Source of the DNA: an uncultured Clostridia bacterium
GTDB lineage: Bacteria > Bacillota > Clostridia > TANB77 > CAG-508
Direction of reading: 5' to 3'
Length of the DNA: 64,000 bases
Assembly: GCA_910589185.1 (NCBI GenBank)
Contig: CAJUSU010000001.1
Coordinates: 1,191-65,190 of the forward strand
Shown piece by piece: positions 4,895 through 37,120 of the stretch. Under the pieces are notes generated by a model. That model was not told the origin of the DNA. It ran no database searches and saw only the letters and a list, made by a program, of their open reading frames with translations. Position 1 is the stretch's first letter. The number at the start of each line of letters is the position of its first letter. The translations under genes and the position numbers were made by a program.

Positions 4895-5380
4895 ATGGGA
4901 AGAAGAAGAAAATCTAGAAGTTTAATCAGTACACAGAGCCTACTCATTATTTTATGCCTTTTGCTAATAGCAGTAGCAGTACATATGCTATTTTCAGAAG
5001 ATGACGAAAAAATTGTGGTAGGACAAGCTAAAGAGCAAACACAAGCACAGAATCAAGAGAAAGATCAAGTACAAAACAAGGCACAAACAGAAAATCAAAC
5101 AAAACCTACTACAAATAGCGAAATAAGTAAAAAAGACGAAGTAAAAGTAGTGCAAAGTGGAAATAGTGCAAACGAAATCAATGAGCAAGAAGCAAGAAAA
5201 CTAGCAGTTAAACAATTCAAAGAGTTAAATGAGAGATGGGTAAAAGAAAGAGATTTAGAAGTACTAGAATTTTCAAGAGCAAATGAATATTATTATTATA
5301 TATCATCAAAAGAGAACACAGTAGAAATCAAAAAAGATGGTGGAAAAATTACTAGAATTAATAGTGTGCCAGTACAATAA
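4895..5380 (+). CDS. Small N-terminally membrane-anchored protein with a Q/N/K-rich linker and a PepSY-like C-terminal domain (tentative)
   Basis: RBS AAGAGGAG lies 8 nt upstream of the ATG. The basic N-terminus MGRRRKSR is followed by the TM helix LLIILCLLLIAVAVHML. The C-terminal ~60 aa (EQEARKLAVKQFKEL...EYYYYISSKENTVEIKKDGGKITRIN) resembles the PepSY pattern. Confidence 0.7.
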   Translation: MGRRRKSRSLISTQSLLIILCLLLIAVAVHMLFSEDDEKIVVGQAKEQTQAQNQEKDQVQNKAQTENQTKPTTNSEISKKDEVKVVQSGNSANEINEQEARKLAVKQFKELNERWVKERDLEVLEFSRANEYYYYISSKENTVEIKKDGGKITRINSVPVQ

Positions 5381-5387
5381 ATGATTA

Positions 5388-5418
5388 GAGATATGCAATA
5401 TTAGCATATCTTTTTTTT
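5388..5418 (+). terminator. Rho-independent terminator after the 161-aa gene
   Basis: GAGATATGC-aatatta-GCATATCT followed by a T8 run. Confidence 0.7.
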
Positions 5419-5520
5419 ACCATAAAAAATCTCCATTAAAATCACAAACCTAGTATTCCCTAGCAAAACGCAAAATAGCCCCCTCATTTGTAACACAAAA
5501 GTAAATAAAATGTCAAAAAA

Positions 5521-5549
5521 AGTACTTTCTAAGAAGAAAGTGCTTTTTC
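5521..5549. terminator. Second hairpin with A-run and T-run flanks (bidirectional terminator-like) upstream of the giant gene
   Basis: aaaaaaAGTACTTTCTaagaAGAAAGTGCTttttt. Confidence 0.45.
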
Positions 5550-5597
5550 CGTATATTTATCTACTTATATTTATATGTAATATAGAATTTAGTAGTA

Positions 5598-5626
5598 TTG
5601 AAAAAATAAGCTAAAGAGAATATATA
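5598..5626 (+). promoter_or_regulatory. Candidate sigma-A promoter for the giant gene
   Basis: TTGAAA, a 17-nt spacer, then TATATA, about 55 nt upstream of ATG 5683. The -10 is weak. Confidence 0.3.
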
Positions 5627-5682
5627 TATTATATTATTAAAAACGGCTATGAATGTAACCGAGAAATTGTGAGGGAAAACAA

Positions 5683-5793
5683 ATGAAACTAAGCAAAAAA
5701 CTAAGGAAAAGACGAAACAAAAAACTATTAACACTCCTCGTTGGAGCAGTAGCAACCACAGGAATTGTAGCTGCAACACAGCTAACAGGCTTT
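5683..5793 (+). other. Signal peptide or N-terminal membrane anchor of the giant protein
   Basis: MKLSKKLRKRRNKKLLTLLVGAVATTGIVAATQLTGF has a strongly basic n-region followed by a hydrophobic h-region. I could not call a clear cleavage site by eye. Confidence 0.7.
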
Positions 5794-8700
5794 AAAACGC
5801 TAACAGAAAATTTATCCAGACTTGGAATGCAAAGAGAAAATAATGCATACCAACTTTTAAGCGATAGTAAAAATACTACCGCTAATTTGCCAACCCTCAC
5901 AAATTCGGCAAAAGAAAATATCACAGTAGCAGCAGGAAATAACTTCACAGCCGTGCTAAAAGCAGATGGCACTGTATGGACATGGGGTAACAACAACTGT
6001 GGCCAATTAGGTAATGGAGAAATTGAAAATGTCGCAACCTATGAACTAACACAAGTTATTGGAGTAGGTGGAGTTGGATACTTAGAAAATATTAAACAAA
6101 TCGCAGTAGGAACTAGCGAAGTATATGCATTAACCAGGGACGGAAAAGTAATTGCATGGGGAAGAAATAACTATGCACAACTTGGTAGAGGTGCCACAGG
6201 AAATTCAGGAACACCAGAATATGTGTTGACACAAGTAGACATAACAGACGAAGAAGGTAACGAAACAACACAAGATGTACCACTAGAAAATATCAAACAA
6301 ATCGCAGCAGGGGAGAGACACGCTTTAGCAATTGACAATAATGGAAATGTATGGGCATGGGGCTTAAACCATGTAGGACAATTAGGACTTAATGTCATAT
6401 CAACCACAGCTAGCAATGCAAATTACAAAAAAGCTTATGCAGTCAAAATGCAAAAAGAAGTAGAAGTGACAGATGATGAAGGGAACATAATAACACAAAC
6501 TGTAAACCTTGACAATGCAAAACAAGTATCAGCAGGAAATGATTTTTCTGTCATTCTAACCAATGACGGAAAAGTATATTGTACAGGAATTGGAACTTCA
6601 GGACAAATTGGAAATAATGCAGCAGTAAATGTCATGATACCAACACAAGTACAAGACTTAGAAGATGTTAAGAAAATAGATGCAGGTGGTTCACATACCC
6701 TTGCACTAAAGAATGATGGAACAGTATGGGCATGGGGACTTAATCGATATGGGCAATTAGGAATTAATACAGCAAGTACCACTAGCAGTAATGCCGCATA
6801 CAAAAGAATTTATCCAGTACAAGTATTAGAAGCAGCAGGAGTACCACTAGAAAATATTGCAGATATTAGTGCAGGTTTAGAAACTAGCTATGCTATCACA
6901 GAAGAAGGAGACCCTTTTGGTTGGGGACTAAACACCTCAGGACAAATAGGAGATAGCACAGCAACCAACAGACTAATTGCAACACCAATTAAAAAAGCAG
7001 CAGGAGAATACCTTACCGGAATTAAAATGCTATCTGTTGGGCAAAACACCAATAGCCACTACATGATAGACGAAAAAGGCGATATTTATGGAAGCGGACT
7101 ATCTACTTCTTACCAAATGCTAAGTGATAGAGTAACTATCACCAATATTGCCACTAGACTAGATGAAACCTATTTGAAATTAAGCCATAACCAAGCCTAC
7201 CTAGAAGTAGGAAACACCTTAGATTTACAACTAGGATATCATAATGGATTGAATGTACTAGACAGAAGATTAGTTCCGGGAAATGTAACTTTCAGAAGTT
7301 CTAATGAAGACATTGCCACAGTAAGTGCAAGCGGAACTATCACAGCAAAAGCAAAAGGTTATGTCACTATCATAGCAGAAGACACCACCAATGGATACAC
7401 AGCACAAAGTATCATCAATGTAGTAGCAAAAGGTGCTAACGCACTTCCACAAGTAGCCAGTGGAACTCTAGCTACTGTTTACTTAAAAGAAGACGGAACT
7501 GTTTGGACCTCAGGAGATGGTACAAATGGAATGCTAGGAAATGGTTACACTAAAATTATCAATAAACCAGTACAAGTAAAAATTGGAACAGATGAATATT
7601 TAACAGATATTAGAAAAATAGAAGTAGGAACAGAACACGTAGTGGCACTTAGAAAAGATGGTACAGTATGGGCATGGGGACTTGGAACCTCAGGACAATT
7701 AGGAGATGGAGCAAATGTTACACATCATTATGCCACTCAAGTAGTAGATGAAACAGGAGAAGACTATTTACAAAACATCGTAGATGTAGCAGCAGGAATA
7801 GACTATTGTTTAGCATTAAAACAAGATGGCACTGTTGTAGGTTGGGGAGTTGGAGCTAACCACTCACTAGGTGTCAATAGCACTGCTAATAGAGCAATGC
7901 CTATCAAAATGCACGATAGCTATAACATTATACAAGTACAAGGTGGTTCAGACACAAGTACAGTGCTAAAAGCAGATGGAACTGTACAAGCAGTTGGACT
8001 TGGAACCTCAGGACAATTAGGAGATAACACAGCTACAACAAAAGCAGAATTAGTATATGCCATCAATGAAGACTTAGATGGAAAACTAACCGGAGTTGTT
8101 AGAATTGCCACAGGTAGCCACCACACGATAGCATTAAAAGAGGATAAAACCGCATGGATATGGGGTTACGACAATTATGGACAAATTGGTATGAACAATA
8201 CCACCAACTATAAACACGCTATTCCACTTAAAAACGTAGGAAACACAGATATTATGCAAAACATCAAAGACATTGCAACAGGTCCAACAGCTACTTATGT
8301 ATTAGACACACAAGGAAATGTATATGCAGTAGGACTAAATACAACAGGGCAATTATCTATTGGAAATGCAACAACTGTCAAAGTATTTACAGTAGCCAAA
8401 GATGAAAATGGAGATCCATTAACAGGAGTTGCCACCATTTCTAGTTCTAAAAATACTACTTTTGGATTTGCATTTGAGGACGGAACTGTTGGTATAACAG
8501 GGCTTGGAACTAGTGGACAACATGGAAATTGGACTTTAGCCAATAGCAATAAAATGACAAGAATAGAAGGAGCAGTATTAGATGCAGGTAACATTTATGA
8601 AACTTATGTCAACAATACTGTCAAACTAAATGTTAACATAAAACCAGCATTTAACTTAAATATTGATTATGAAAAGAACTTACAACTAGGAGAATTAACT

Positions 8701-11700
8701 TATCAGTCATTAGATGAAGAAGTTGCCACAGTTTCTACTGATGGAACTGTTATCGGAATGAAAGAAGGAACCACAGGAATTGTGATAACAGACACCACCA
8801 ATGAAATTGAAACAACAGCTTATGTAACAGTAGGACAAAGAGATTTTAGCGACATTTACAAAATAGTAGCAGGATCCAATCATACTGTATTATTAAAACA
8901 AGATGGAACTGTTTGGGCATGGGGTGCTAACAATGTAGGACAAATGGGAAATGGAGAAATATTTAGCAAACAAGCCACACAAGCAGAGCGAGTATTAGCA
9001 CCAGAAGGAACTGGATATTTAACAGATGTCATAGATATTGCAGCAGGAACTAGCTTCTCAGTAGCATTAAAAAGAGACGGAACAGTGGTAGCTTGGGGTG
9101 ACAATACCTATGGACAATTAGGAAACACAAATGGTGTAGCAGAGAGACCAGTTTATGTACTAGATATGTATGGAAACAAATTAACTGGTGTGACAAGTGT
9201 ATCAGCAGCAAGAGACCATGCAGCAGCAGTCAAAGCAGATGGAACTGTTTGGGCATGGGGAAGAAATGACTATGGTCAAATTGGAAACAACTCAAGCTTA
9301 GCAACTTGTGCTTATGCAGTACAAGTATTAGACAGTACAGGAGCAGACTACTTAAAAGATATCAAGCAAGTTAGTGTAGGACAAGCCTTTGTAACTGCCT
9401 TAGCAAAAGACGGAACTGTCTGGAGTTGGGGACTTGGAACTTCAGGACAATTAGGAAACGCAGCAAAAGCAACTAAAAAATTACCAGTACAAGCAACAGG
9501 TGTAACAGATGTCACAAAAGTAGTAGCAGGAAATGCAGGTGTTGCTGTATTAAAAACAGATGGCACAGTTTGGTGCTGGGGTATGAACAGATATGGAACC
9601 TTAGGATATGGAACATTAAGTACTAGCAGTTCAAATGCAAACTATTTAAAAACTACACAAATTCAAGTAAAAATAGATGCCAACACTTATCTAGAAAATG
9701 TAAAAGATATTGGTGGAACTTTTGAAACTAGATTTGCCTTAACACAAGACGGAACCGTATATGGCTGGGGCTTAAATACAACTGGAGAAATAGGAGATAG
9801 CACAAAAGCAAATAAAGCTTATGCCACAAGACCTGTTAGAAGATATAAGGACGAAGTAGAAAATACAATTGTCAAATTAAGCAGTTCAACTTCTGGATAT
9901 ACCAACTATCTCATCAAAGAAGATGGTAGTATTCTAGGAAATGGTAGGGCAACCAATGGACAAATCTTAGAAGGTGGTAACTATACAGAAAGAGCCTATG
10001 TAGATGATGTACTAGTAAGCTATATGGAATTTGCAAATAGAATAGAATATATCAAACAAGGTGCAACTAAAAAGCTAGAGGTAAGAGGAGTAGAAAACCT
10101 AAATGCTTTAGGAAAAGCACCAGAACTTGGTAAACTAACTTGGAAATCTATGAATGAAAATGTAGTTAGCATTGACCAAAATGGAAACATCACAGCAAAA
10201 GAATTAGGACAAGCAACTATTATTGCAACAGAAGATAAACATGGATACAGAGCACAAGCAACTATCTATGTAACAGCTAACAAAGAAGAAGCAATTGCAG
10301 CACCAATGGTAGTACAAGGAACAGGATTTACAGTAGCTTTAAAAGCAGACGGAACAGTTTGGGCGGCAGGACTAAACAACAATGGAGCATTAGGAGATGG
10401 TACTTATACCAATAGAGAAAACTTAGAGCTAGTTAAAATAGATGAAAATACCAACTTAACCAATGTAGTTAGAATTGCAGCAGGAAATTCACACGTGGTT
10501 GCTGTAACAAAAGACGGTTTTGTGTATGCTTGGGGACTTAATGGAAACGGACAACTAGGTATTGGTTCTACTGTAAAACAAAACTATGCACAAAAAGTAT
10601 TAGACGAAACAGGAGAAGACTATTTATCTAACATCATAGATGTAGCAGCAGGTGGGTTACATAGTATTGCCATTGACAACCAAGGAAATGTATATACTTG
10701 GGGAAAAGGTGGAAATTATCAATTAGGAAATTATGCAACAGCCAATAAGACTACCCCAATTAGAGTATGGGATACTTACAACATTGTCAAAGCAGCAGGA
10801 GGAACAGAACATACCATGTTACTTCGTGGAGATGGAGTAGTACAAGGAACAGGACTAAACACAAATGGTTGGCTAGCAATGGGAGACGCAGATACTAGAT
10901 ATACTCCACTAGAAATAGGAAGCAACGCAGAGGCAGCAATTCAAAGAGAAATTTATGATATAGGAGCAGGAGCAAACCATAGTATTTTCCTAAAAGAAGA
11001 TGGCAAAGTATATACCGTAGGATTAAACACCTCAGGACAACTTGCCACAGGAAATGCTACTGCAAGCAATGTTTTAGTAGTAGCACAAACCAAAAACGAA
11101 AAAGACGAATTAGTAGACCTTGAAAATATAGTAAGCGTTAGTGCAGGAAATGCAACCTCTTTTGCCATTAGCAAAACAGGAGAAGTATATAGTGCAGGAC
11201 TTAATACTTCAGGACAATTAGGTTTAGGCAATAGCACATCACCAATCAATACTTTCACAAAAGTATTAGATGATGAAGGAGAAAATCCATTACAAAATGT
11301 TATTGCCAATAGCAATGGTTCAGGAAATACTATCAATAGTGCCTTTATTACCAAAGATGGAGTTTTATACACTTGTGGTAATAACGCAAACGGACAATTA
11401 GGAAATAGCACTTACTTTAACTATAATGTACCAGTCATTGCAGGAGATGCACAATTAAAAATTGCTAATACCCAAATGAAAGTCCAATTAAATCAGGAAG
11501 CACAAATTGATTTAAAATTAGAACAAGGCTTCAATGTATATAACAACACAAAAGAAGTAGGAACCAACCTTACATATGAAGCAACAAATCCAAATGTAGT
11601 AACTGTATCTAATACAGGAAAAGTAACAGGAAAAAGACTAGGAACTACTAGAATTAAAATCACAGATAAAGATAACAAAATTACAGAATATGTCCCTGTC

Positions 11701-32700: not shown

Positions 32701-35700
32701 AACGCATTTGCATTGGGAACAGATAGTTATACTTTAAATTTAACAGGAGTAAATAGTAAGACAGTAACAGTTACTGTAAAGGCACAAGACGGAACAGAAA
32801 AAACTTATACCGTAAATGTACAAAAAGTATCTAGTGATAATACGCTTCAAACCGTTAAAGTCAATAATGTAGAAATCACAGAAGTAGACGGAATTTATAG
32901 AGCGTTTATCAAAGAAGATGTGACAAATGCTAACTTGTATGTAGAAACCACCCATAGTGGAGCAACTATCAAGTTAGGAGAAGATGACGAAAAAGTACAT
33001 ACTGTTACAAAAGATATCACAATGGACCAAACAGAAAAGACAATTGCAATGAAGGTAACTGCTGAAGACGGAAGTGTAAAACAATATACTGTTATTATTG
33101 CAAAAGAATCTTCTGATATTGAAATCCAAAGTGTAAAAGTTGACAATAAAGGTGCTATTGTCGTAGATGAAAGTACTTACTACATTACAGCAACACCGGG
33201 AGCGACAGAGGCAGAAGTAGAAGTTATCGCAGCAAACCAATATGCTGGTGTTCAAATCAATGGAAGCGCAAAACAGACAGGTAAAAACACAGTAAAAGTA
33301 ACCTTACCAGCAAATCAAAAAGTGGTAGCTGTACCAATTGTCATCACAGCACAAAACGGAAAAGATAGTAAAACTTATACTTTAAACATTGAGCAAGTAT
33401 CGAATAATACGAATATCATCAAAGTAACTGTCAATGGAAAAGATGTTACAACTTATGATGAAGAAACAAAAACTTATACACATATTGTAGACTATTCAGT
33501 AGACGAAGCTACCGTTACTGTGGAAACAGAAAATGCGGAAGCAACTGTCAGAATAGAAGCGGGGGCATTTAGTAAACATACTGCTACGGAAAATGTATCA
33601 ACTGCCGGAGAAATCAACGATATTACCATTACAGTAGTTGCAGAAGATGGAACAACAGAAAATAGAACATTAGTCATCAAGAAATTATCACAAGATGCAT
33701 CTATCTTAAAATTATTTGTCAATGATGTAGATATCGCTGCAAATGATGACGGAAGCTATACAGCAGAAGTAGTAGAAAGTGAAACAAAGGCAACTGTAAG
33801 AATTAAAACCACGAATAAAGATGCTCAAATCTTATTAGATGGAACCGCATTAGAAAATAAGGGAGAAGGAACAAAAGAATATACCACAACAGGTACAAGA
33901 CAGATAACTGTTCCAATTAAAATCATAGCAGAAGATGGCATTACAACAAAAGAAACTACTTTGACGATTAACATTGTGTCAGACAACAAGAATTTAGAAT
34001 ATGTCAAAGTAAATGGAGTAGTTGTAACAGAGTATGACGAAGACACTTCTACATATCAAGCATTTATACCAGCAACAGCTGCCACTGCTAGTGTTGAAGT
34101 AAAAGCTATCAGCCCTTATGCTACATTAAATATTGATGGAAATACTGCTACACAAGTAATTACTTACACAGCTACAACAGATGCAGATATTACTTATGTT
34201 TATGTAGATGTCATTGCAGAAAATGATAGTGTAAAAACCTATACAATTGCTATGCAAAAGGAATCAACAGATAATACCTTAAAAGACTTATACAAAGATG
34301 GTACACAAGTAGACCCAGAAGAAGATGAAAACTATATTATCAATGTACCAGAAGATACCTTAGAACTTACCTTAAAAGCAATTGCTAATAATGAATATGC
34401 CACAGTAGCAATTGGTAATGAAACAGCAGAAGTAAAAGAAACCACTAAGACAGTTACCTTAGCAACTGGCAAAACAACTACTGTTAATATTACTGTAACT
34501 GCACAAGATAAATCACAAAGAGTTTATACAGTAACCATTAACAAAGTATCTGCTAATAATAATATAGAATATGTCAAAGTAAATTCAAATGTTATTACCA
34601 ATTATGATGCAGATACCAAAACTTATGAAGCATTTATACCAGCAGGAGCAACAAGCGCTAGCTTGGAAGTTCAGTCTGAAAATGCTTATGCACAAGTCGA
34701 AGTATTAGACGCCATAGGAACACATAATGTTAATACTACCGTAACCATAGATGAGGAGGAAACTCTCGTATCTGCTATTGTTACAAGTGAAACCGGAGTG
34801 GAAGAAACTTACTACATCAGGCTAATCCGAATTTCAACAGATAATAGCATCAAACAAATCTATGTCAATGGTACCTTGATAGAACAAGACGAGGACGGTA
34901 ACTACATTGCAGAAGTTGCAGAAAATAGCAAAGATGCTCTTGTCAAAGTAGTAGCAAACAATAAATACGCAAGCGTTCAAATAGCCAATGGGGAGGCTAA
35001 AACGGAAGCTAGCGAGGAAACTGTAACACTATCTACTGACAAAATCACCAATGTTGCAATTACTGTTACTTCACAAAGTGGAACTGTCGCAAACGAAACT
35101 TTAATTATCAAGAAAGTATCAGATGATACGGGTATTAACACAGTGCTAGTCAATAGCATTGAATGTAAAAACTATGATGAAACTACTAAGACTTACACAG
35201 CCTATATTGGAGCAGATGTAGATCAGTCTGAAGTAGCTGTTATGGCAAATAGCCAAGGGGCAACAGTTACAATTGAAGATGTAACAGGAACAGGAAATGC
35301 TAATAAAACAGTTGCAACTACTGCACAAACTACGAAGTTAGCAGTAACCATTACTTCTGAAACAGGCAAGACAGCAAAATACACTATTCTAATTGTAAAA
35401 GAATCTGCAGATGCAACAGTAGAGTTAATCAAAGTAAATGACAAAGAAGTACAAGCACCTTATGATGTAACCATTAAGAAATTAGACACAAAAGCAAAAA
35501 TCTATGTAAAAGCAACCAATAGTAATGCCATTGTAAAAATAGGAGATGAAGCGGCAGAAAAAGGAAGCAGCGAGGTAACACTTACTATCCCACTAGAACA
35601 AGAGGTTATCGTAGTACCAGTTGTTGTAACTGCTCAAAACGGTGTTGCAAAAGAAACTTATAACATTACTTTAAGAAGAATTAGCAATAATACAGGAATT

Positions 35701-37014
35701 AAACAAATACTAGTCAATGGGGAAGACGTAGATTTAACAACATTTGAACATATTGTGAAAAATGTTAATGAATCAAGTATTGTGATTATTCCAGAAGATG
35801 AAAATGCAACCGTTAAGTTAGATAGTAACACTTCTAGCACAAATGATAATACTTGGAAAGTAGATACTTCTACAACAACTATTAGGGGAATTACAGTGAC
35901 AGCACCAGACGGAACAGAAAAAGAGTATGCATTAACATTGATGAAAAAGGTAACGATTTCAGGAACTATTACAGATGAAAACATCGTGGATAAACATATT
36001 GCCAAAGTCTTTGTTTACCAAACTGATGACACAAGAAAGGAAAGTACCAAAACGGATTTGAATGGTATCAAACTAGACGAAACAAGCGGAACAGTTCAAA
36101 CGAATGTAAGGGAAATTATCGCTGAGGTAGAAACAAAGCCAGACGGAAGTTATGAAATCGTGTTAGAACCAGGAGAATATGATGTAGTATTTACAAAACC
36201 GGGTTACTTAACACATAGAATTACACATATTGATATTTCAAAAGGAAAAGGCGCAGAATTAGACAAAGTAGCAATGCTTGCCGGTGATGTTGTTGAAACA
36301 GGCGAAATTGAATTAGACGACTTAGTAAGCATCAATGAACAATACGGTTTAACAGTAAGCTACGCAGACGGCGTAAATGACGCAAATGTAAAATATGACT
36401 TCAATGGTGATGGTATCGTAGATGCAAAAGATAGAAATATCTTAAAGAAAAACTACGGTAAGAAAGCAAAAACAGTAAAATGGGTTAATCCAGATGAAGT
36501 AGCAAAACAAGAAGCGACAAAAGCAGCAAGAAAAGCTAACAAAATAGTAAGCAGTGAGACTAGGGGAACTTCTGCTTATGAAGGACAATTCGTTTTACCA
36601 CTAAATAGCAAATACACCATTACGTCAAACTATGGGGACAGAATTGGACCTATCACTGAAACAAATGAAAAACACACAGGAATTGATATTGCAGGAGAAC
36701 ATCATGCAGAAGTACTTGCAGTTACTGATGGGGAAGTAACATGGGCAGGTGTACAAAACGGATATGGTAACTGTATTGAAGTGAAACATATTGTTAATGG
36801 GGAAACAATTTACAGCTTCTATGCACACTTATCAGAAATCAGAGTAAAAGTCGGAGATAAAGTAACACAGGGCCAAGTGATTGCTTTAGAAGGTGGAGAT
36901 CCAAGTACTGACCCTAATCCGGGGGACAGTACAGGACACCACTTACACTTCGAAATCAGAACAAAATCTGGTTATGGAAATGATGTGGATCCTACACAAT
37001 TTATCAAGTTCTAG
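5683..37014 (+). CDS. Giant (10,443 aa) secreted or surface-anchored mosaic protein. Order of parts: signal/anchor, 17 x (RCC1 propeller + Big_2), 23 x cadherin-like beta-sandwich, CarboxypepD_reg-like, dockerin-like, M23 peptidase.
   Basis: There is no stop codon for 10,443 codons. A GAGGGA RBS lies ~7 nt upstream of ATG 5683. The N-terminus is basic and followed by a hydrophobic helix. Recognisable domain motifs run along the entire length (see sub-features). Antisense ORFs are all short. Confidence 0.95.
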   Translation: MKLSKKLRKRRNKKLLTLLVGAVATTGIVAATQLTGFKTLTENLSRLGMQRENNAYQLLSDSKNTTANLPTLTNSAKENITVAAGNNFTAVLKADGTVWTWGNNNCGQLGNGEIENVATYELTQVIGVGGVGYLENIKQIAVGTSEVYALTRDGKVIAWGRNNYAQLGRGATGNSGTPEYVLTQVDITDEEGNETTQDVPLENIKQIAAGERHALAIDNNGNVWAWGLNHVGQLGLNVISTTASNANYKKAYAVKMQKEVEVTDDEGNIITQTVNLDNAKQVSAGNDFSVILTNDGKVYCTGIGTSGQIGNNAAVNVMIPTQVQDLEDVKKIDAGGSHTLALKNDGTVWAWGLNRYGQLGINTASTTSSNAAYKRIYPVQVLEAAGVPLENIADISAGLETSYAITEEGDPFGWGLNTSGQIGDSTATNRLIATPIKKAAGEYLTGIKMLSVGQNTNSHYMIDEKGDIYGSGLSTSYQMLSDRVTITNIATRLDETYLKLSHNQAYLEVGNTLDLQLGYHNGLNVLDRRLVPGNVTFRSSNEDIATVSASGTITAKAKGYVTIIAEDTTNGYTAQSIINVVAKGANALPQVASGTLATVYLKEDGTVWTSGDGTNGMLGNGYTKIINKPVQVKIGTDEYLTDIRKIEVGTEHVVALRKDGTVWAWGLGTSGQLGDGANVTHHYATQVVDETGEDYLQNIVDVAAGIDYCLALKQDGTVVGWGVGANHSLGVNSTANRAMPIKMHDSYNIIQVQGGSDTSTVLKADGTVQAVGLGTSGQLGDNTATTKAELVYAINEDLDGKLTGVVRIATGSHHTIALKEDKTAWIWGYDNYGQIGMNNTTNYKHAIPLKNVGNTDIMQNIKDIATGPTATYVLDTQGNVYAVGLNTTGQLSIGNATTVKVFTVAKDENGDPLTGVATISSSKNTTFGFAFEDGTVGITGLGTSGQHGNWTLANSNKMTRIEGAVLDAGNIYETYVNNTVKLNVNIKPAFNLNIDYEKNLQLGELTYQSLDEEVATVSTDGTVIGMKEGTTGIVITDTTNEIETTAYVTVGQRDFSDIYKIVAGSNHTVLLKQDGTVWAWGANNVGQMGNGEIFSKQATQAERVLAPEGTGYLTDVIDIAAGTSFSVALKRDGTVVAWGDNTYGQLGNTNGVAERPVYVLDMYGNKLTGVTSVSAARDHAAAVKADGTVWAWGRNDYGQIGNNSSLATCAYAVQVLDSTGADYLKDIKQVSVGQAFVTALAKDGTVWSWGLGTSGQLGNAAKATKKLPVQATGVTDVTKVVAGNAGVAVLKTDGTVWCWGMNRYGTLGYGTLSTSSSNANYLKTTQIQVKIDANTYLENVKDIGGTFETRFALTQDGTVYGWGLNTTGEIGDSTKANKAYATRPVRRYKDEVENTIVKLSSSTSGYTNYLIKEDGSILGNGRATNGQILEGGNYTERAYVDDVLVSYMEFANRIEYIKQGATKKLEVRGVENLNALGKAPELGKLTWKSMNENVVSIDQNGNITAKELGQATIIATEDKHGYRAQATIYVTANKEEAIAAPMVVQGTGFTVALKADGTVWAAGLNNNGALGDGTYTNRENLELVKIDENTNLTNVVRIAAGNSHVVAVTKDGFVYAWGLNGNGQLGIGSTVKQNYAQKVLDETGEDYLSNIIDVAAGGLHSIAIDNQGNVYTWGKGGNYQLGNYATANKTTPIRVWDTYNIVKAAGGTEHTMLLRGDGVVQGTGLNTNGWLAMGDADTRYTPLEIGSNAEAAIQREIYDIGAGANHSIFLKEDGKVYTVGLNTSGQLATGNATASNVLVVAQTKNEKDELVDLENIVSVSAGNATSFAISKTGEVYSAGLNTSGQLGLGNSTSPINTFTKVLDDEGENPLQNVIANSNGSGNTINSAFITKDGVLYTCGNNANGQLGNSTYFNYNVPVIAGDAQLKIANTQMKVQLNQEAQIDLKLEQGFNVYNNTKEVGTNLTYEATNPNVVTVSNTGKVTGKRLGTTRIKITDKDNKITEYVPVTVLHSYGFTEAKIVSGLNFAVALKEDGSVWAWGNGTSGRLGNGSTANQTQEVPVLDPNGKDQLTGVIDIAVGHDSTVALLQDGTMVAWGNNANYNLGDGTNVDRSIPVFVVDANGDKIQNITKIARGNDYTLALTKEGEVYSWGYNKYGQLGNGGTSTNATPIKVKESTGKGTLKGIIDVKCTMYASIALDADGSVWTWGKNANGELANGTKDDITLPKLSKLTDIDQLATSAYSGIAIDKNGALWSWGWNGYGQLADGTTTDRATPVSAKLNATDLVTDVIDIGTSGGTHYILTSNYQVYAVGGNAQGQIGDNTTTNRSYYTQVKAKYGEALTDKIVKISKSMSRTDSSTDTSTAYLTREDGSILGLGKNSGYQLFGKNQDILKCAKEMKTSYLEMIERINRIKIGENTKLILNMVQNFNIYSRTPVAGNITWTSSNESIATVDQKGTITGLKEGQTTITAKDDKYGYIATSIIYVTRNTASTITIPQVAQGQKFTVVLKADGTVWATGQNNYGQCGADSSVANIGELTPVKTENGTPLNNIVKVISGLDHTLALTKDRKVYVWGLNSNGQLGINSKVNQYAATYMLDEDGENPVTDVIDIAAGESFSTILKANGELYAVGNGTYSQLGIGNTTAYMTLVKMEEMQNVVQVVNGGYHTVMLRGDQTVWTVGRNRYGEMGINSIKDSSTATAQGMGYARQVINQDQNGVLRNITQVTAGGYHSVALTNTKEVYSWGYGGDGQLGTGKTAHFAYPQTVLSYKPTAEEDEGISGIIQVGSSERSIFFLTENHEVYATGENSNYQLSQDNTTDLLTPNGLYDYTGEKYIDEIANIPTGSKNINNTTVIKQDGTVWVSGLGANGQIGNGEFQTATLYTRMGIAKLQVADKIVTLAQGETHTLDVSVNQGFNVYEGETDKAGKLNYTSSNTQIAAVDENGVITAGKQGEARITIYDPVHDWTTSTLVKVTRDAEDKVKAETSVGSAGLILKTDGSVWTAGDNTYGQRGVGDKAKHLTETPVLDPNGTDKLTDVISISAGQYFNAAVKRDGRVVTWGINTYGQLGNKTNVNSEIPVYVLDIDGNPLTDIFQVYCGENHAVAVRKDGSVWTWGYNYYGQLGDNTATNRNYAIQVKDRSGLGHLQGICQVVANRNTTLALTDTGEVYAWGYNYDGQLGDGTRTTGSNPGGRRKLLPVKAVITDVARLAGGLHSTLALKNDGTIWTWGLNRYGSLGYGSSSTSEGTHYAKATPMQVKIDSVTFLTDVVEIGTSYESDYAVTKDGKVYAWGYNNAGQLGVNNTTNYSYAQLIKTRYGELLTDKIVTLSKGTTASTNYLVREDGTILGVGYTGSSQKLFTNRTANMATVQELRPDFMEVDKRVSYIKQGESTKLNIQIAKNLNAFTGHIKLGNLTWTSSNPEIATVTNDGTITAVALGETTITIKDLAHNYQAQAVVYVIQNHEQAITMPDVSQGDNFSVFLKADGSVWTTGLNSSGQLGDGTTINRSKPVRVKINSKEYLSGIVKIAAGLDHVTALSKTGEVYTWGTNDVGQLGNGGTTRSVFASKILDSNGQNPISNVVDINCGHKFTLMLLNDGTVWGVGRNAYGELGILNNTNKSLPVQMDGIANAIRVQANSSGSSIQIADGTVWTTGYNYYGTLGQNGTNTGSSAASQGRNAPNPVINNTRNAVLRNVVKLVGGLHHDIVLQEDNTVWAWGYNHVGQYGTGNTTNFAYPVRVQMGGEELTDKVVNVGTSGYNALLQTIDAQNKKHTLITGYNNNGQLGNGTTTNATSFIPLNNKDNTEEAENIDILPDDTRGHFTLGVIDTNGTVWTAGLNNYGQLGDDTVYNRKNIVQVGEIALKVEDIIFTMNPNDTKQIKAYIEDSFNVYIKENQVGTLKFESLDVAIAEVSDTGVVTAKGIGDTLIRVIDTSRNIQSAVYVKVIKKQDDMQYEPMVDGGTAHSVALKGDGTVWTWGYNKFGQLGNNTTVTTEMPTQVLGKDATGFLTDIQMVASGKNHVLALKNDGTVWAWGYNNYGQLGDNTQITRYTPVQVLAEDASSPLQDIIYIAAGEDYSVAINKKGEVWTWGKNDYGQLGDGTKTAKYTPTRVKANLSGIIKVACGIRHTVALKADGSIYTWGDNGNGQLSDNTNTQRLIPVKVLETADTYVSDAISISATNYSTHILKADGTVKSVGLGTSGQLGDGGKVNTKLPVTVVGVGGTDTLAQVKSIKSGANTTYALRKDGTVVSWGLGTNGELGNEALANSLFPVEVVNHTQDGILSNILYIGAGANHGMAVEDTGYVEVWGLNSQKQVGDITIAKSTYPLYIGSKIVATPSEVTMEVGDTQNLKVAMQSFNLFRATEDETMTRVTYQSLNEAVATVSKNGTITATGMGITTIVVNDHLSAKVTTVQVSVLENNAIATPKVVSGINHTIALKADGTVWTWGYNHHGQLGDGTTKSSYIPQKIGLTDVIDIAAGDHFSMALKKDGSVWVWGFNDRGQLAQGNTAESLTPVPVKGVNGDPLPRVKKIAACRYSWVAILETGEVVGCGANTQAILGDGTSTDRYFPVYMLNHNGSAHVKEVKDITIGQCETFLIKEDGSLWSVGHNCNGGMGVGNKTAYTRIRQVQDTTGTGVLNNIIQVSGGGWYTLALDANGNVWAMGRNAEYELGINNTTSQTRPQKVLGVGGTGYLENIVRIEAGYYSSYAVDKAGDVYAWGDNRHGQLGINNATTQKVPKQVLGGTAGGNLDDVMLASSNGYHATFVKYDGTVWTTGYNGNGELGNDSTAKRLTVECISNPQLEVDQKYLLFSQNLGETKKVNVKANSGFNLLTDTATAGANTFKSLNTSIATVDQDGNITSAGSGTTYIRITNDTLGLTTTVKVVVPYRDGIVVPKVDGGANHYVALKADGTVWTWGYNGYGQLGIGNTANQLEPVKTNMTDVIDVAAGGNFTAVLKKDGTVWVTGQNNYGQLGQNNTTNTTNFIQVKSENGLANLTDIIGITAGEYHMAALKSDGTVVAWGYNAYGQLGNNTKTTAKLPTRVRRVSSIMEIAANGNYLIMLVSDGTVWAAGNNNIGQLGQNNTTVSTIPLKIKNPAGTGEMTGIAKVEAGNGHTILLGENGRVYSTGQNNYGQLAQGNTTNKTLIVEAKEVGGAVITNAADIVARNCTTMILRKDGTVYTAGYNAYGAAANGTTVANKYFTKMLGEYGEGDFTNVLLGAQTNNTALVANNIGSVYTAGYNAYGQLGDKTTKQSNYLVGISHTSLEVKEPIMTMQQIGSQKQIECKLNLGFNILYNNLQTENYTYKVLNKDIASVDANGVVTALKYGSTSIEITNQETGNKATVILNVVREGDIANPKVASGVDYNVALKSDGTVWTWGYNNYGELGLGDTARRLEPTKVNITGVIDIAVGNHHTLLLKQDGTVWAMGLNNYGQIGNNTTTNVSQPVQVQGLENIIRIEAGANHSIALKSDGTVYGWGYNAYGQLGDNTTTRRNVPVEVRRISGIKDIAAGNHSSMALDTDGNVWVWGLNTSGQLGLGTKTNAILPTKLTSVSKIAQVEMGTNYGMVVTENGEVYSFGVNDVGQLGIGNKTNQITPKQVLQADKTPLTNVEYVAAGTKHVLAKTKNGLAYGWGLDTNSQLGDDQTTNKLNAVPITYAGGADEITEVLEVAAGNAHSILVREDGTVWTVGKNNYGQIGDETTINKKSWVCISEIRIKVKETSITINAVGGKYNLSPVLGVGFNLLYDDGADGDFAFASKDTTTADVSEKGVITGVKRGKTKIGITETNTEKTIYVDVYVLDEKDVAFPQIVTGESTTVALKADGTVWTWGQNDKGQLGLGDNKNRIAPTKVDIDNVIKIATSGNHTLALKKDGTVWAWGQGTAGQLGTGLLQNSNVPVQVRDETGVNVLQNIKEIATANQLSMVVTSEGKVYAWGLGTSGQIGNGAKTNQTMPTKTLGLSNITKIAGGNLSAYAITDEGEAYAWGYNNRGQLGDGTNTLRTQPVKIPNLTGIIEISATSTEQVIALKDDGTVWGWGYSTLGALTDVGGSTPKQIAGKTNRMKDIASISAGYYAGLAITDEGKVLGWGTNGFGGLGNGTTTNTATPTHVMESATKELDQIFIIAMGKNYSVYAKEDGSVWATGTNEFGQLGNTSTVTIHTPENISQDYISTNKLELVFHELNVEQPINATYNFGFNLYNNSADVKFTYTSEDDTVAAVGENGMVTSRNIGKTYINITAGELTRRVEVNVLAPQEIAAMDAQGGLRHTLALKTNGTLWAFGDNSYGQLGLGSVESTTYHKPQEVKLPENTKFTKIAVGSNHNLALDTNGNVYGFGLNANGQLGNNTNTNSGELVKVEGLTNIVKIAAYKNMSMALNQDGELFVWGEGYSKQPEKVDFHAKVIDMTGRILLSEQGTVWNMKNLNEKTPTLTNIVEIASGDSHNLALKADGTVYGFGANNYGQLGTGNTTNADKPVVISNLPKVESVKANLYTSYVLTSAGEVYSFGRNTKSSLGQNTSATYNMAPTKIDSTKVQRISAGQNFGIYVNDEGFVYSWGNNDYGQLAQDEKEIITPSVIGTVKVQTDKDYITIEEGETKGISATLNNTFNLRKDVIASDGFTFESMNTGIATTQDIRVTGVKEGITPIVISHPASEQKSAIYVEVVRPNAKSVIDLKAGTDFNLALKADGSLWSWGSGTYGKLGVGSLDNHNEPQVIQTASRTRQIATGLEHIVVLSEEGKAYTAGKNGNGQCGNGTSVNSKDLTNVLNENGKPLENLVMVAAHGNTTYLLDNEGIVYACGAGYNKVATKIANLPKMAQISGNYGITMDKKVFDLSTGSQVEKLENIIKIAQGDNHTLFLSQAKTVYSLGTNTNGQGGIGTKTNIMTPTQVKNNVGTGILTGVVDIAAGKNFSMAVLDNGTVYTWGSNENNKLGTDQVNDQILPRRNTNIQNAMKVAAGTNHAAFVANDGRVYAWGNGENGTLGNGVDANSTQPVLVGSEEVVVDNHHVTLHIDEEITLNANVKSFNLIQDLEKGSLTYKLNDNSIATIDNNGKITGVKEGVTSVTVTQDGTDHQAIVQVTVIRKNANVNPLVKTTNSSNVILKADGTVWTYGANDNGELGNGNNTASDNLNQVVFNPEVKIKEIAVGENHVLALDENGEVWAWGSNSYYQLGTSEIASSNQPIKLELGSKAIKIAAGHNSSYAITADNSLMAWGLNTDGQLGLGNNDNRLLPTKVRTLKNVLDVTAGKSHTVIVTTNGTVYTTGNNSFGSLTGDDYKRNTFKVATNLSNIAYISAGEYHNMALSTKNEVYVWGYNVYGQLGTGNTSNINQPVKVDIANAKQVSSGKSHSSILTKEGKLYSTGLNSLGQLGTTSKDNQVTFTLVDTIDEVYGIDTGNTYDMAIKNDGTVWAWGDYYHGTNAIRTKSNSRVPTQIGIQNFYLVENDISVNKDTSKQLQVNPQFEFNVFENNTLENNFSYISLNEDIAVVDENGNVTGKKVGTTWVKVIENTSKAEQIAIIRVTEPGNKVAPKVAGGINYAVVLKADGSVWSFGYNSNGQLGDSSFVASKVPKEINILKSYTDITAGDNFTLILKNDGTVWSVGDNQYGQLGLGDRTSRQTPTVIPNLENVVKIAAGSKHSIALTKYGEVYTWGANTNGKLGIGNLDTKDLPVKVEIPGANIIDVAAGEGYIALVDSNGTIYVSGKLGSIESKVPVAVSGIANSAKAAAGKDLIVLTKEGNVVQVGEQTTTLYSSKDAVDIAAKGTNYLILNNSGKLFDGGISSNGEIGEVLTIGSGMNNTYYIATSGLVYSKGQNQYGSLGNDTTDNSEEYTLVGKRSFTVSPNNILMSTNDIKDLTLTSERYNVLKQDNRTINDFDWVSNDTNIVTVEAPAQIKAIAEGETTITVTQKDTGAEVEVMVVVEPLEAQRLEKLAVNEVDAQVSGAKKYEVTIATDKDNGSLVITTKDKTDKISIDGGTTWFENGSLTQVVSLPNSVTQIPIKVQTSNGTVFDYTLDVIKQSTITTLESLTVNGTEATATGGTNYSIVVEDADLATVKAVTTHQQAKVGIDSNSVKVHEATEDLSLVDTLIRTVPIQVIAESGKEVNYVLTIYKKSAVTELESVTVDGKEATKNNHLNYSMVVEKDSTQVDVKAIALYDLANVNINNLGAEVKETTRTITLTGDVTIVKIKVGMGEEEKEYTLTITKKVDGSDLADLFVNGEKATKVSDNQYEAVVASNSQTAEVLAIAAVNTSNVQIGSNAQEVGSSKVVVATPDNSNIYTITITDAEDVSKTATYTLTIKKPSTDNSLKYIRISNNEISVDATRDAGTDTYRVKINEKYENLTITAVANYELAEVAIETNSYQVKQDTLAYTFNTESATLQIKVKAQDGDEKTYTLILEKQSSDVTLEYVKVNGANAVKSAEKADTYEITLTQKVDDVTVEAKTTDEAAEVALNNIVYELQTITKQIAMDAKEITVKINVKAEDGTTKTYDLIIHSVPDNTKLTEITVNGVTAVLQPYSNKYVVRVPSNLTTYAVTAKAEDSLAMVKIDNFDAILAQSTQNIAKTEPAPTKVAIEVTAQDKESKEQYELEIYPRSQDTILAYLKVDESFVEPADDGQYYVKVVNSTTSVKIEAKAGDENATTGINKAGTTNIVTEVGTLTGDVTVFDIIVTAEDGNTKTYKLNVEKLSNDTSIVGIYVDGNEVIAVDGKYVAKIGNNTTCLVKAIATNPDAKVSVDGNTDAVKENQNTVDVNEEEKTIEITVTAPDGTKKIYPLTLQRNSTDNTLLSISGKDVPEDAVVQTSETTYQMIVSNELTKLELTAVTSSKVAEVKIGDNSYEVNTQTKEVTLPNDTNTVIITVKSESGEEKEYTLTIIKKYVLTLDSITVDGVAAEKQEDGTYIAWVDPTSTQSNVVVTPTSSKVQVKVGETINNIGTTNYTVATTEDETISKIIVKSPIEEDQVEYTLKIMKKSQDTTLEYVKVDSQVGTEEDDGSYTVKVPVQDNSYTMEVKTTSPYAQVKIEDNAFALGTDSYTLNLTGVNSKTVTVTVKAQDGTEKTYTVNVQKVSSDNTLQTVKVNNVEITEVDGIYRAFIKEDVTNANLYVETTHSGATIKLGEDDEKVHTVTKDITMDQTEKTIAMKVTAEDGSVKQYTVIIAKESSDIEIQSVKVDNKGAIVVDESTYYITATPGATEAEVEVIAANQYAGVQINGSAKQTGKNTVKVTLPANQKVVAVPIVITAQNGKDSKTYTLNIEQVSNNTNIIKVTVNGKDVTTYDEETKTYTHIVDYSVDEATVTVETENAEATVRIEAGAFSKHTATENVSTAGEINDITITVVAEDGTTENRTLVIKKLSQDASILKLFVNDVDIAANDDGSYTAEVVESETKATVRIKTTNKDAQILLDGTALENKGEGTKEYTTTGTRQITVPIKIIAEDGITTKETTLTINIVSDNKNLEYVKVNGVVVTEYDEDTSTYQAFIPATAATASVEVKAISPYATLNIDGNTATQVITYTATTDADITYVYVDVIAENDSVKTYTIAMQKESTDNTLKDLYKDGTQVDPEEDENYIINVPEDTLELTLKAIANNEYATVAIGNETAEVKETTKTVTLATGKTTTVNITVTAQDKSQRVYTVTINKVSANNNIEYVKVNSNVITNYDADTKTYEAFIPAGATSASLEVQSENAYAQVEVLDAIGTHNVNTTVTIDEEETLVSAIVTSETGVEETYYIRLIRISTDNSIKQIYVNGTLIEQDEDGNYIAEVAENSKDALVKVVANNKYASVQIANGEAKTEASEETVTLSTDKITNVAITVTSQSGTVANETLIIKKVSDDTGINTVLVNSIECKNYDETTKTYTAYIGADVDQSEVAVMANSQGATVTIEDVTGTGNANKTVATTAQTTKLAVTITSETGKTAKYTILIVKESADATVELIKVNDKEVQAPYDVTIKKLDTKAKIYVKATNSNAIVKIGDEAAEKGSSEVTLTIPLEQEVIVVPVVVTAQNGVAKETYNITLRRISNNTGIKQILVNGEDVDLTTFEHIVKNVNESSIVIIPEDENATVKLDSNTSSTNDNTWKVDTSTTTIRGITVTAPDGTEKEYALTLMKKVTISGTITDENIVDKHIAKVFVYQTDDTRKESTKTDLNGIKLDETSGTVQTNVREIIAEVETKPDGSYEIVLEPGEYDVVFTKPGYLTHRITHIDISKGKGAELDKVAMLAGDVVETGEIELDDLVSINEQYGLTVSYADGVNDANVKYDFNGDGIVDAKDRNILKKNYGKKAKTVKWVNPDEVAKQEATKAARKANKIVSSETRGTSAYEGQFVLPLNSKYTITSNYGDRIGPITETNEKHTGIDIAGEHHAEVLAVTDGEVTWAGVQNGYGNCIEVKHIVNGETIYSFYAHLSEIRVKVGDKVTQGQVIALEGGDPSTDPNPGDSTGHHLHFEIRTKSGYGNDVDPTQFIKF
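5920..29400 (+). repeat. Array of 17 modules, each an RCC1-type beta-propeller (~7 blades) followed by one Big_2 Ig-like domain
   Basis: The blade motif 'DG(T/S)VW(T/A)WG.N..GQLG.G' recurs in groups. Each group is followed by a Big_2-like block ('..L.(Y/W).S.N..IATV...G.ITA...G.T.I....'). The Big_2 blocks end near nt 7425, 8835, 10275, 11710, 13135, 14597, 16050, 17500, 18915, 20320, 21705, 23055, 24405, 25640, 26890, 28205 and 29400 (about +/-15 nt). The module at ~18915-20060, parsed residue by residue, has exactly seven blades. Confidence 0.85.
29419..35949 (+). repeat. Array of 23 tandem cadherin-like beta-sandwich domains (PF12733-type pattern)
   Basis: There are 23 units of ~90-97 aa. 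The pattern is 'L..(L/I).V.G......(D/G).Y...V......V.(V/I).A......A.V.I.........V.L......I.I.V.A.DG....YT(L/V).I.K.S'. I counted them from the recurring '..K.YTLTI.K.S'-type endings. Confidence 0.8.
35955..36245 (+). other. CarboxypepD_reg-like (carboxypeptidase regulatory-like beta-sandwich) domain
   Basis: ISGTITDENIVDKHIAKVFVYQ...VETKPDGSYEIVLEPGEYDVVFTKPGYLTHRITHIDIS shows the typical 'G.V.D..G.P...A.V.......T..DG.Y.....PG.Y.....K.GY' pattern. Confidence 0.6.
36280..36466 (+). other. Dockerin-like duplicated EF-hand segment
   Basis: GDVVETGEIELDDLVSINEQYG (degenerate first repeat) and DFNGDGIVDAKDRNILKKNYG (a good match to the dockerin D.N.DG.(I/V)D..D...LK..L pattern). Confidence 0.6.
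36589..37011 (+). other. C-terminal M23 (LytM/lysostaphin-family) metallopeptidase domain, predicted active
   Basis: HTGIDI (HxxxD), YAHLS and GHHLHFEI (HxH) are all present in canonical order and spacing. The glycine-rich core 'GYGNCIEVKH' is also present. Confidence 0.85.
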
Positions 37015-37063
37015 TGTCAGTTTGGGGACGTTAGTTTAACTGACATCTGTCCCCTAACTGACA
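37015..37063 (+). repeat. Palindromic intergenic element, copy A (full-length, 49 nt). It begins at the first nt after the giant gene's TAG.
   Basis: TGTCAGTT-T-GGGGACGTTAGTTT-AACTGACA-TCT-GTCCCC-T-AACTGACA. Two alternative folds are possible: an inner 8-bp hairpin, or a 14/15-bp outer stem TGTCAGTTTGGGGAC/GTCCCCTAACTGACA. Confidence 0.85.
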
Positions 37064-37065
37064 TT

Positions 37066-37103
37066 CCTAGAAAAAGACGAGCGACGGCTCGTCTTTTTCT
37101 AGG
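37066..37103. terminator. Strong rho-independent terminator of the giant gene (perfect 17-bp stem, bidirectional A/T tracts)
   Basis: CCTAGAAAAAGACGAGC-GACG-GCTCGTCTTTTTCTAGG. Confidence 0.85.
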
Positions 37104-37120
37104 AATATTTTGTGAAACTC

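Follow-up and report, generated by a model that had tools for sequence, protein, structure and literature searches.

A giant gene of uncultured gut Clostridia encodes a propeller- and cadherin-repeat protein with a putative X-module-dockerin-M23 cassette at its C-terminus

What does a gut bacterium build with a single gene of more than 31 kb, and by which end would so long a product be held? Both questions are raised by a 64,000-nt stretch of DNA from an uncultured mouse-gut Clostridia bacterium (contig CAJUSU010000001.1; the whole stretch is called the window here), in which one open reading frame (ORF) at 5683..37014 of the forward (+) strand encodes 10,443 amino acids (aa). An original prediction, made from the DNA letters, had read the product as an ordered chain of propeller-Ig modules, cadherin-like repeats, a CarboxypepD_reg-like domain, a dockerin-like segment and a terminal M23 peptidase. 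We find that the gene is real and that many relatives share its C-terminal part, and we suggest, more tentatively, that the product is an adhesive fibre moored by its C-terminus. Features lie on the forward strand unless stated otherwise.

The ORF, whose product has a calculated mass of 1,118 kDa and a pI of 5.0, contains zero internal stops, the 64-kb window is free of N, and the nearest in-frame stop on the 5' side is at 5656. A ribosome-binding site, GAGGG, can be read directly from the sequence at 5671..5675, 7 nt before the ATG. Given the base composition of the gene itself, the chance of a stop-free run of 10,443 codons is ~10^-358, and the longest open run in the remaining five frames across the gene is 174 codons. 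The uninterrupted 31.3-kb frame and the ribosome-binding site of the original prediction are thus borne out. Repeat-driven misassembly, a hazard raised at the same time, is not supported: DNA repeats within the gene are at most 257 nt long and 60-80% identical, and Tandem Repeats Finder detected zero tandem DNA arrays in it. A lookup of the exact downstream SDR protein and the upstream 161-aa protein placed the same locus in >10 independent mouse-gut assemblies, and a product of exactly 10,443 aa was present in four independent ones (GCA_948909005.1, ERZ28659991, ERZ941067 and ERZ27255222). Shorter calls of the product stopped at contig ends or had the ORF called as two pieces. The split in locus L112 (~8779) coincides with a 10-N scaffold gap; split calls also occur in L008/L113 and in L009/L116, and the L009 locus with the 3' piece contains N. 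Relative synonymous codon usage of the giant gene correlates with that of rpoB, rpoC, ftsH and dnaB at r = 0.90. Because terminator-like hairpins lie on both sides of the gene, two at its boundary with the upstream gene (5387-5413 and 5517-5548) and an intrinsic-terminator-like one with a 20-bp stem at 37063..37106, 49 nt past the stop codon, the gene looks monocistronic; a simple promoter scan of 5549-5682 found no clear sigma-70 promoter. Thus, the giant gene is genuine and intact, and native to the chromosome of this uncultured Clostridia bacterium from the mouse gut.

Domains of the protein were assigned with Pfam thresholds, hidden Markov models (HMMs) built from the protein itself, AlphaFold2 models and Foldseek. 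The Pfam families over threshold are WD40_RLD, RCC1, RCC1_2, Big_2, Cadherin-like, CarboxypepD_reg and Peptidase_M23. The largest region, at 5941..29406, consists of 17 tandem units, each a seven-bladed RCC1-like β-propeller joined to a Big_2 Ig domain, and was delimited by Pfam, by a self-HMM that recovered 17 of 17 units and by alignment. Units 1-9 start at 5941, 7432, 8842, 10282, 11716, 13141, 14602, 16054 and 17506, and units 10-17 at 18919, 20326, 21712, 23062, 24415, 25642, 26893 and 28210. Three propeller families were scored (PF00415, PF13540 and PF25390); WD40_RLD reached 2227 and 2312 bits against a cut-off of 150, and RCC1 and RCC1_2 exceeded 1000 bits each. In the alignment of the 17 units, which are 23-41% identical to one another at the aa level, each shows seven blade motifs (DGTVWxWGxNxxGQLG) followed by one Big_2 domain. 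Blades 3-4 carry deletions in units 14, 15 and 17, where the propellers are partly degenerate. The C-terminal Ig segment is present in 17/17 units, and Big_2 (PF02368) scored 166, 145 and 50 bits against a cut-off of 22.8. An AlphaFold2 model of unit 12 (mean predicted local distance difference test, pLDDT, 94; predicted TM-score 0.86) matched UVR8 (E 4e-36), the HERC2 RLDs, RPGR and RCC1 in Foldseek, with target-normalised TM-scores of up to 0.90.

The propeller region is followed at 29413..35970 (aa 7911-10096) by 23 tandem cadherin-like β-sandwich repeats of ~97 aa each (PF12733; 288 bits against a cut-off of 24.2), which a second self-HMM resolved as contiguous domains. These repeats and the C-terminal domains described below make up the final 24% of the protein. 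The self-HMM counts of 17 and 23 equal those originally predicted, and so does the strict order of propeller-Ig units, cadherin-like repeats and C-terminal domains. In addition, the RCC1, Big_2, cadherin-like and M23 assignments each pass the Pfam threshold, and the two parts modelled singly, propeller unit 12 and the C-terminal 347 aa (pLDDT 90), were both modelled with confidence.

The C-terminal end of the protein carries three further domains. An X module, a CarboxypepD_reg-like β-sandwich, occupies 36001..36273 (aa ~10107-10197; AlphaFold2 pLDDT ~95), and CarboxypepD_reg scored 37.6 bits against a cut-off of 32.3 when the C-terminus was scanned alone. It is followed directly by a dockerin-like module at 36274..36468 (aa ~10198-10262) with two loops. 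Loop 1, GDVVETGEIELDD at 36283-36321, is partly degenerate, with the usual Asp/Asn absent at positions 3 and 5, and loop 2, DFNGDGIVDAKD at 36397-36432, is a canonical calcium loop. Both dockerin segments are conserved across the family, their calcium-loop residues are invariant, and many homologues have a precomputed PF00404 match. In a phmmer search of the PDB, aa ~10150-10261 aligned in one piece to the X module and dockerin of 4wi0_B and 4u3s_B (E 2e-6), which are Acetivibrio cellulolyticus scaffoldin chains, and more weakly to the corresponding dyad of CipA, 2b59_B. Because a single alignment spans the X-module-dockerin (XDoc) dyads of these scaffoldins, the two domains are best read, at the level of sequence, as an XDoc dyad; AlphaFold2 gave high-confidence models for both. 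The CarboxypepD_reg part of the original assignment therefore stands on its own score, whereas the dockerin falls below the Pfam cut-off by itself and is recognised through the joint alignment.

A linker of ~43 aa (36469..36597), modelled as a helix followed by a short low-confidence stretch, connects the dyad to a metallopeptidase domain of the M23 (LytM/lysostaphin) type at 36598..37011 with HTGID, YAH and HLH motifs. Peptidase_M23 scored 82-93 bits in Pfam, with 93 bits from the C-terminal scan, and the PDB sequence search also matched this domain. The zinc-binding and catalytic residues are all present, H10331, D10335, H10382, H10420 and H10422, and are invariant in 20 family sequences and nearly so in 66. 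In Foldseek the modelled domain matched LytM, lysostaphin and EnpA at target-normalised TM-scores of 0.80-0.85, and it also superposes on ShyA and NMB0315. Since its active site is strictly conserved, the enzyme is predicted to be functional, and we regard the domain as a predicted catalytically active peptidoglycan endopeptidase, in line with the full set of catalytic residues, the Pfam score and the fold match; the original prediction of an active C-terminal M23 domain is upheld to this extent. No NCBIfam equivalog reached threshold for the domain. Small M23 proteins that stand alone, of which at least one comes from a Clostridia metagenome-assembled genome (MAG), share 61-63% identity with it, which fits recruitment from such a protein.

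At the other end, residues 1-31 (5683..5775) form a probable Sec signal peptide with a basic n-region, a 17-aa h-region and a putative cleavage site between VAA and TQ. The pattern is kept in three orthologues (P0154, P0155 and P0157), which have VAA before T or AVA before K and thus small residues at -3 and -1. Only one segment resembling a transmembrane (TM) helix was found in the entire protein, at aa 14-34. The original reading of a signal-like N-terminus is supported both by this sole TM-like window and by the shared cleavage-site pattern, and the signal is probably cleaved after Sec export. The C-terminus, which ends in DPTQFIKF, has no LPXTG-type sorting signal, SLH domain or TM segment, and the giant protein does not show the C-terminal LPXTG, hydrophobic stretch and basic tail that together mark a sortase substrate.

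How widespread is the XDoc-M23 cassette? A search with the C-terminal 444 aa returned ~2,600 proteins, of which the best were metagenomic fragments of 250-750 aa carrying Cadherin-like, CarboxypepD_reg, Dockerin_1 and M23 domains. In two contexts the fragments could be traced to giant genes interrupted by a run of 10 N in the scaffold or by the end of a contig, and one fragmented relative totals ~12.6k aa. Giant ORFs are broken at 10-N gaps in L001 (~9265-9274), L002 (~9833-9842) and L112, and the pieces are annotated separately as 'partial M23 peptidase' or RCC1 proteins; because gap-broken ORFs are entered as separate proteins, the giant family is hidden from protein databases. A scan of species-representative genomes detected 276 relatives, and 78 loci were kept, all of them from uncultured gut Clostridia of mouse, human (Hadza, HGM, UMGS, CAG:440 and CAG:343), rabbit, goat and water deer. 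The full 10 kb on the 5' side of the cassette is open in ~40 loci from ~30 species-representative genomes, typically with 17-29 cadherin repeats (14 in L057) and propeller units ahead of them. Thus, the search for orthologues proposed in the original prediction recovered dozens of orthologues and paralogues in related gut Clostridia. Several genomes have more than one copy of the cassette, with up to five in one genome, and the same cassette terminates paralogues with other N-terminal parts, including cadherin-only proteins. A cassette profile run against a library of 1.84 billion proteins matched 898 proteins at E <= 1e-30, and many library proteins of 2,400-7,200 aa terminate in the cassette; the library is representative at 50%, holds family members of up to ~7.2k aa only and does not include the window protein. 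A search with the N-terminal 560 aa gave matches that were all <1,000 aa, among which extracellular RCC1 proteins with SLH, type IX secretion system or dockerin anchors were common.

One paralogue class combines an ALK_LTK_GRD glycine-rich region with cadherin-like repeats and the cassette. Its length is constant at 2,683 aa, or 2,644-2,658 aa in three loci, and it is found in L001 (12128-21452), L041 (11706-20907), L059 (11458-20659), L025, L029, L034 and L035. An overlapping ORF of ~436 aa precedes it, and it often lies directly 3' of a giant gene.

The ratio of nonsynonymous to synonymous substitution rates (dN/dS) of the giant gene is 0.10 against a strain that is 1.2% diverged. Three sister species are 89% identical in aa sequence across the last 3,777 residues and stop-free there; against them dN/dS is 0.13-0.14 for propellers and cadherin repeats, 0.09-0.13 for XDoc, the lowest of the regions compared, and 0.20-0.25 for M23. 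Relatives at 70% and 58% identity likewise keep an open frame. The entire compared length of the gene is kept by purifying selection.

To what might the cassette attach? In Ruminococcus flavefaciens the C-terminal XDoc of ScaB and CttA binds the sortase-anchored cohesin protein ScaE (PMC5301203). The window contains a sortase gene at 49874-50647, 12.9 kb 3' of the giant gene, which belongs to a generic family and scores below every NCBIfam class model; among window ORFs of at least 100 aa no LPXTG-type substrate was detected. In a related locus, L047, a gene 7.7 kb from the giant gene encodes a 282-aa protein in which a signal peptide is followed by a Cohesin domain (35 bits; threshold 24), a linker rich in Asn and Asp and, for sorting, an LPKAG signal, and it adjoins a gene for an NPCBM, F5/8-type-C and Dockerin_1 protein. 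A protein of like build with an IPYTG signal is encoded directly downstream of the giant gene in L064. This protein has no Pfam or PDB match of its own, and its assignment as a cohesin is based on the 28% identity of its N-terminal domain to the L047 cohesin (pairwise E 9e-6) together with the identical architecture. The cohesin family comprises 226 homologues, all of 145-285 aa, and LPxTG-type signals are present in 108 of the 120 listed. The cohesin gene in this family always lies 3' of the NPCBM-dockerin gene, followed in one common variant by a sortase gene; such a sortase gene adjoins the cohesin gene in the P0475 contigs.

The conserved set in gut Clostridia, an NPCBM + F5/8 type C + Dockerin_1 protein of 1,543-2,172 aa, a cohesin protein with LPXTG signal and sometimes a sortase, occurs at L047 (14350-19856) and in L091-L110, in gut metagenomes and MAGs, several of them from mouse gut. 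From its domains it would constitute a minimal, non-cellulolytic cohesin-dockerin display system.

With the cellulosomal XDoc proteins (R. flavefaciens CttA and ScaB/ScaE; as structural comparators, A. cellulolyticus ScaA, PDB 4U3S and 4WI0, and C. thermocellum CipA, 2B59) the window protein shares an X module and a two-segment dockerin near the C-terminus, and very large extracellular size. Its lineage likewise has sortase-anchored single-cohesin proteins, one of which adjoins a giant gene. It differs from them in having no cohesins, carbohydrate-binding modules or glycoside hydrolases, in carrying M23 after the dockerin and in its degenerate loop 1. In the cellulosomal systems it is this docking that holds the protein at the wall (PMC5301203); by analogy, the same may hold for the window protein, with a cohesin of the lineage as the candidate docking partner.

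From these data we favour a model in which the giant protein is a Sec-exported adhesive fibre whose C-terminus is moored by XDoc-cohesin docking and whose M23 domain acts on the producer's own wall, and we give it a probability of about 0.45, a little short of even odds. In this model the protein would leave the cell through Sec and lose its N-terminal signal. The C-terminus would be cell-proximal because the signal looks cleavable, XDoc is present and the cassette is constant across paralogues, with XDoc docking to a surface-displayed cohesin like the sortase-anchored ScaE-type proteins of relatives. That orientation would place M23 at the producer's wall, within a few nanometres of the peptidoglycan, which the endopeptidase may open or grip, and in this way the fibre would come to be planted through the wall. 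The 23 cadherin-like sandwiches would serve as a stalk and the 17 propeller-Ig units as a long, distal, multivalent array with host mucus or glycans, food particles or other microbes as possible ligands. It is the constant cassette, XDoc, the signal-like N-terminus and the ScaE-like cohesins of the lineage that argue for mooring by the C-terminus; what we infer is that the signal is cleaved, which end is anchored, that a cohesin is the partner, what M23 cuts and what the propellers bind. The 'lytic or anchoring tip' of the original prediction, by contrast, presumed an N-terminal anchor, and three observations run counter to it: the N-terminus is signal-like, XDoc moors the C-terminus in known systems, and the cassette is the constant part.

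Several observations weigh against the model. No cohesin gene was found in the 64-kb window and none is tied to the window's species, and every cohesin gene of the lineage comes together with an NPCBM-dockerin gene, whose product may be the true partner of the cohesin. The Dockerin_1 (PF00404) match of the giant protein is sub-threshold (15 bits against 22.9, E 0.029, covering 2-54 of 57 profile positions), and the degeneracy of its first calcium loop points the same way. The dyad is not terminal either, being followed by the 43-aa linker and the 138-aa M23 domain; characterised XDoc proteins all end in the dockerin, and we know of no precedent for an enzyme placed after it. Finally, strict conservation of the M23 catalytic residues would be superfluous for a pure anchor.

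The last point leads to the rival that survives best, which stays plausible although we consider it unlikely, namely a contact-dependent lytic or 'predatory' fibre. Here the N-terminal signal would remain in the membrane as an anchor, propellers and stalk would extend ~200 nm, and the C-terminal M23 domain would reach a neighbour's wall and lyse the cell or open it for access to nutrients or DNA. The strict or nearly strict conservation of all five metal-binding and catalytic residues across the family would suit such a role, as would a fold like those of the bacteriolytic enzymes lysostaphin, LytM and EnpA, and giant bacterial proteins have been proposed to act in adhesion and cell-wall attack (West-Roberts et al. 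2023, bioRxiv 10.1101/2023.11.21.568195). The M23 domain also matched phage proteins in the PDB (9m7n_A and 9k2v). Phage tail fibres with terminal M23 domains exist. In the tail-associated lysins lactococcal Tal and phi29 gp13, too, an elongated structural protein ends in M23 and breaches the Gram-positive wall locally, but these lysins are virion components of at most ~1,000 aa. Against a lytic fibre, the h-region spans just ~17 residues and is followed by a conserved AxA-like site, and the XDoc dyad stands immediately ahead of M23. Moreover, it is the N-terminal parts that differ among paralogues while the M23 end stays the same, which is the reverse of polymorphic toxin and contact-dependent inhibition systems, so that the cassette is more readily seen as a sorting or anchoring module than as a polymorphic toxin. 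Clustering of flanking ORFs revealed no conserved immunity-like neighbour of the giant gene; those that recur are a CAP/YkwD-like gene, a small TM protein and Big_3 proteins.

Less probable again, though likewise plausible, is that the protein is released, or hangs from a scaffold as cohesin-docked 'cargo', and clumps cells or particles as a soluble, multivalent agglutinin or binder of glycans; M23 would then function in autolysis, daughter-cell separation or biofilm remodelling. The lineage does pair glycan-binding NPCBM + F5/8 type C + Dockerin_1 proteins with cohesins, the C-terminus of the giant protein lacks a covalent anchor (LPXTG, SLH or TM), and carbohydrate binding has been suggested for the PF12733 cadherin-like domain in its Pfam annotation. 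However, M23 is the sole catalytic domain that Pfam detects, with no glycoside hydrolase or other catalytic cargo, and the rod-like repeats and the size are closer to tethered adhesins than to enzymes. The weakest rival, an artefact of repeat-driven misassembly or a pseudogene without a single full-length product, has the split ORFs of some MAGs in its favour (for example 1091+9379, 6836+3573 and 7211+3220 aa) and is largely refuted already, to the point of being barely credible, by the identical length in four independent assemblies, the scaffold gap at the L112 split, the failure to find long near-identical repeats inside the gene, the native codon usage, and a frame at its 3' side that is stop-free over ~3,700 codons in relatives down to 58% identity with dN/dS of 0.1-0.3.

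How does the protein compare with known giants? The original prediction had held serial RCC1 propellers to be undescribed, and this is contradicted both by the dozens of orthologues and paralogues and by a brief description of RCC1-type giant genes from gut Clostridia of human, mouse and rabbit, for which adhesion was suggested (West-Roberts et al. 2023, bioRxiv 10.1101/2023.11.21.568195, section 12). Going by their published description, those proteins and the window protein share an origin in gut Clostridia metagenomes, tandem seven-bladed propellers, a predicted extracellular location and the absence of TM anchors. The published ones, assigned to Oscillospiraceae, are reported to exceed 30,000 aa and to consist of a single repeating domain throughout, whereas the window protein has 10,443 aa and mixed domains; its Big_2 spacers, 23-repeat cadherin-like stalk and XDoc-M23 have no mention in that text, where M23 occurs 0 times. 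With LytM, lysostaphin, EnpA, ShyA and NMB0315 the M23 domain shares the fold and the HxxxD, H and HxH residues. Those enzymes have 130-500 aa and SH3b, LysM or coiled-coil partners, while here M23 is the last 1.3% of the protein and follows XDoc. Megadalton repeat adhesins such as Staphylococcus aureus Ebh, Salmonella SiiE, Marinomonas MpIBP and Pseudomonas LapA are, like the window protein, single polypeptides of around a megadalton with tens of Ig-like repeats, a ligand-binding end and an anchoring end. They differ in using other repeat families and either type I secretion system retention modules or, in Ebh, a C-terminal TM segment, and neither arrays of RCC1 propellers nor an XDoc-M23 end are known from any of them. 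In the literature we did not find a description of the order propeller-Big_2, cadherin-like, XDoc-M23, nor of XDoc-M23 as the end that defines a family, of the distribution of this cassette among mammalian gut Clostridia or of the conserved synteny with CAP genes.

The flanks of the giant gene are housekeeping in character (rpoB, rpoC, gdpP, sortase, dnaB, tilS, ftsH and a penicillin-binding protein gene), and the window contains no phage genes. Downstream, a CAP/YkwD-like secreted protein is encoded at 39349..39891 (TIGR02909 141 bits, under the cut-off); 16 loci from divergent species show such a gene in synteny with the 3' end of a giant gene. In at least 10 divergent loci it comes after the giant gene, at ~0.2-1.3 kb in eight of the loci (L024, L030, L031, L039, L044, L047, L049 and L079), and in the window's clade it lies within ~2.3-5.6 kb. 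Upstream, a 161-aa protein with an N-terminal TM segment (4895..5380) recurs directly beside large surface-protein genes in 10 loci, among them L017, L025, L026, L030, L033, L034, L036, L056 and L057; these proteins of 126-191 aa carry a TM segment near the N-terminus, then a low-complexity linker and, at the C-terminus, a domain of ~70 aa. The 161-aa protein belongs to no family in Pfam or NCBIfam, and a likeness to PepSY/SpoIIIAH noted by eye was dropped, since Pfam SpoIIIAH scored 18 bits over the TM segment and linker only and NCBIfam gave nothing. The window opens (1..4359) with the C-terminal half of a 2,969-aa surface protein with Big_3 repeats. The gene order upstream in the same species runs from a 419-aa cadherin-like + XDoc protein, through the 2,969-aa Big_3 protein, to the 161-aa TM protein; the 419-aa protein has no M23 domain and is encoded 13 kb upstream of the giant gene, and together with the Big_3 gene it lies in L111 (1-9465), just ahead of the window. 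The Big_3 protein has a TM segment after an 85-aa cytoplasmic head on its N-terminal side and another with a 100-aa tail on its C-terminal side, and appears to be membrane-anchored via both ends. No family was detected for its N-terminal ectodomain of ~190 aa; a cohesin-like appearance, judged by eye, was unsupported by Pfam, PDB and the lineage cohesin HMM and was dropped.

Other wall-active or surface genes near the giant genes of relatives encode an SH3b x3 + NlpC/P60 protein (L044, 16407-17768), a GH25 + LysM x3 protein (L032, 16493-17734) and a thioester-domain (TED) + DUF11 adhesin (L054, 4755-8543). Within the giant gene of the window, two ORFs on the opposite strand (10953-11411, 152 aa, and 23046-23546, 166 aa; both -) are best explained as shadow ORFs that the A-rich coding strand gives rise to.

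What, then, would such a protein mean for these bacteria? Giant genes are rare and usually fragmented in metagenomes, and this has concealed a conserved family that gut Clostridia carry in mice, humans, rabbits and ruminants; the mouse-gut origin of the window makes it experimentally tractable. A further-reaching idea, which we regard as doubtful though worth stating, is that XDoc and an active M23 domain together form a 'plant-and-hold' wall-insertion module, in which the dockerin would lock to a sortase-anchored cohesin and the peptidase would cut the producer's peptidoglycan to let the fibre pass, or alternatively that they arm contact-dependent bacteriolytic spears. If true, the plant-and-hold module would define a large family of megadalton fibres in uncultured mammal-associated Clostridia, and under either version Gram-positive gut bacteria would have a previously unrecognised way to display surface proteins or to attack other bacteria. 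The XDoc-M23 cassette would then count as a novel form of Gram-positive surface anchoring or else as a novel contact-dependent lytic device, and would take cohesin-dockerin biology far past fibre degradation. If the fibres attach to mucus, particles or microbes, they would likely be major determinants of niche and of cell-cell interaction in an abundant uncultured lineage.

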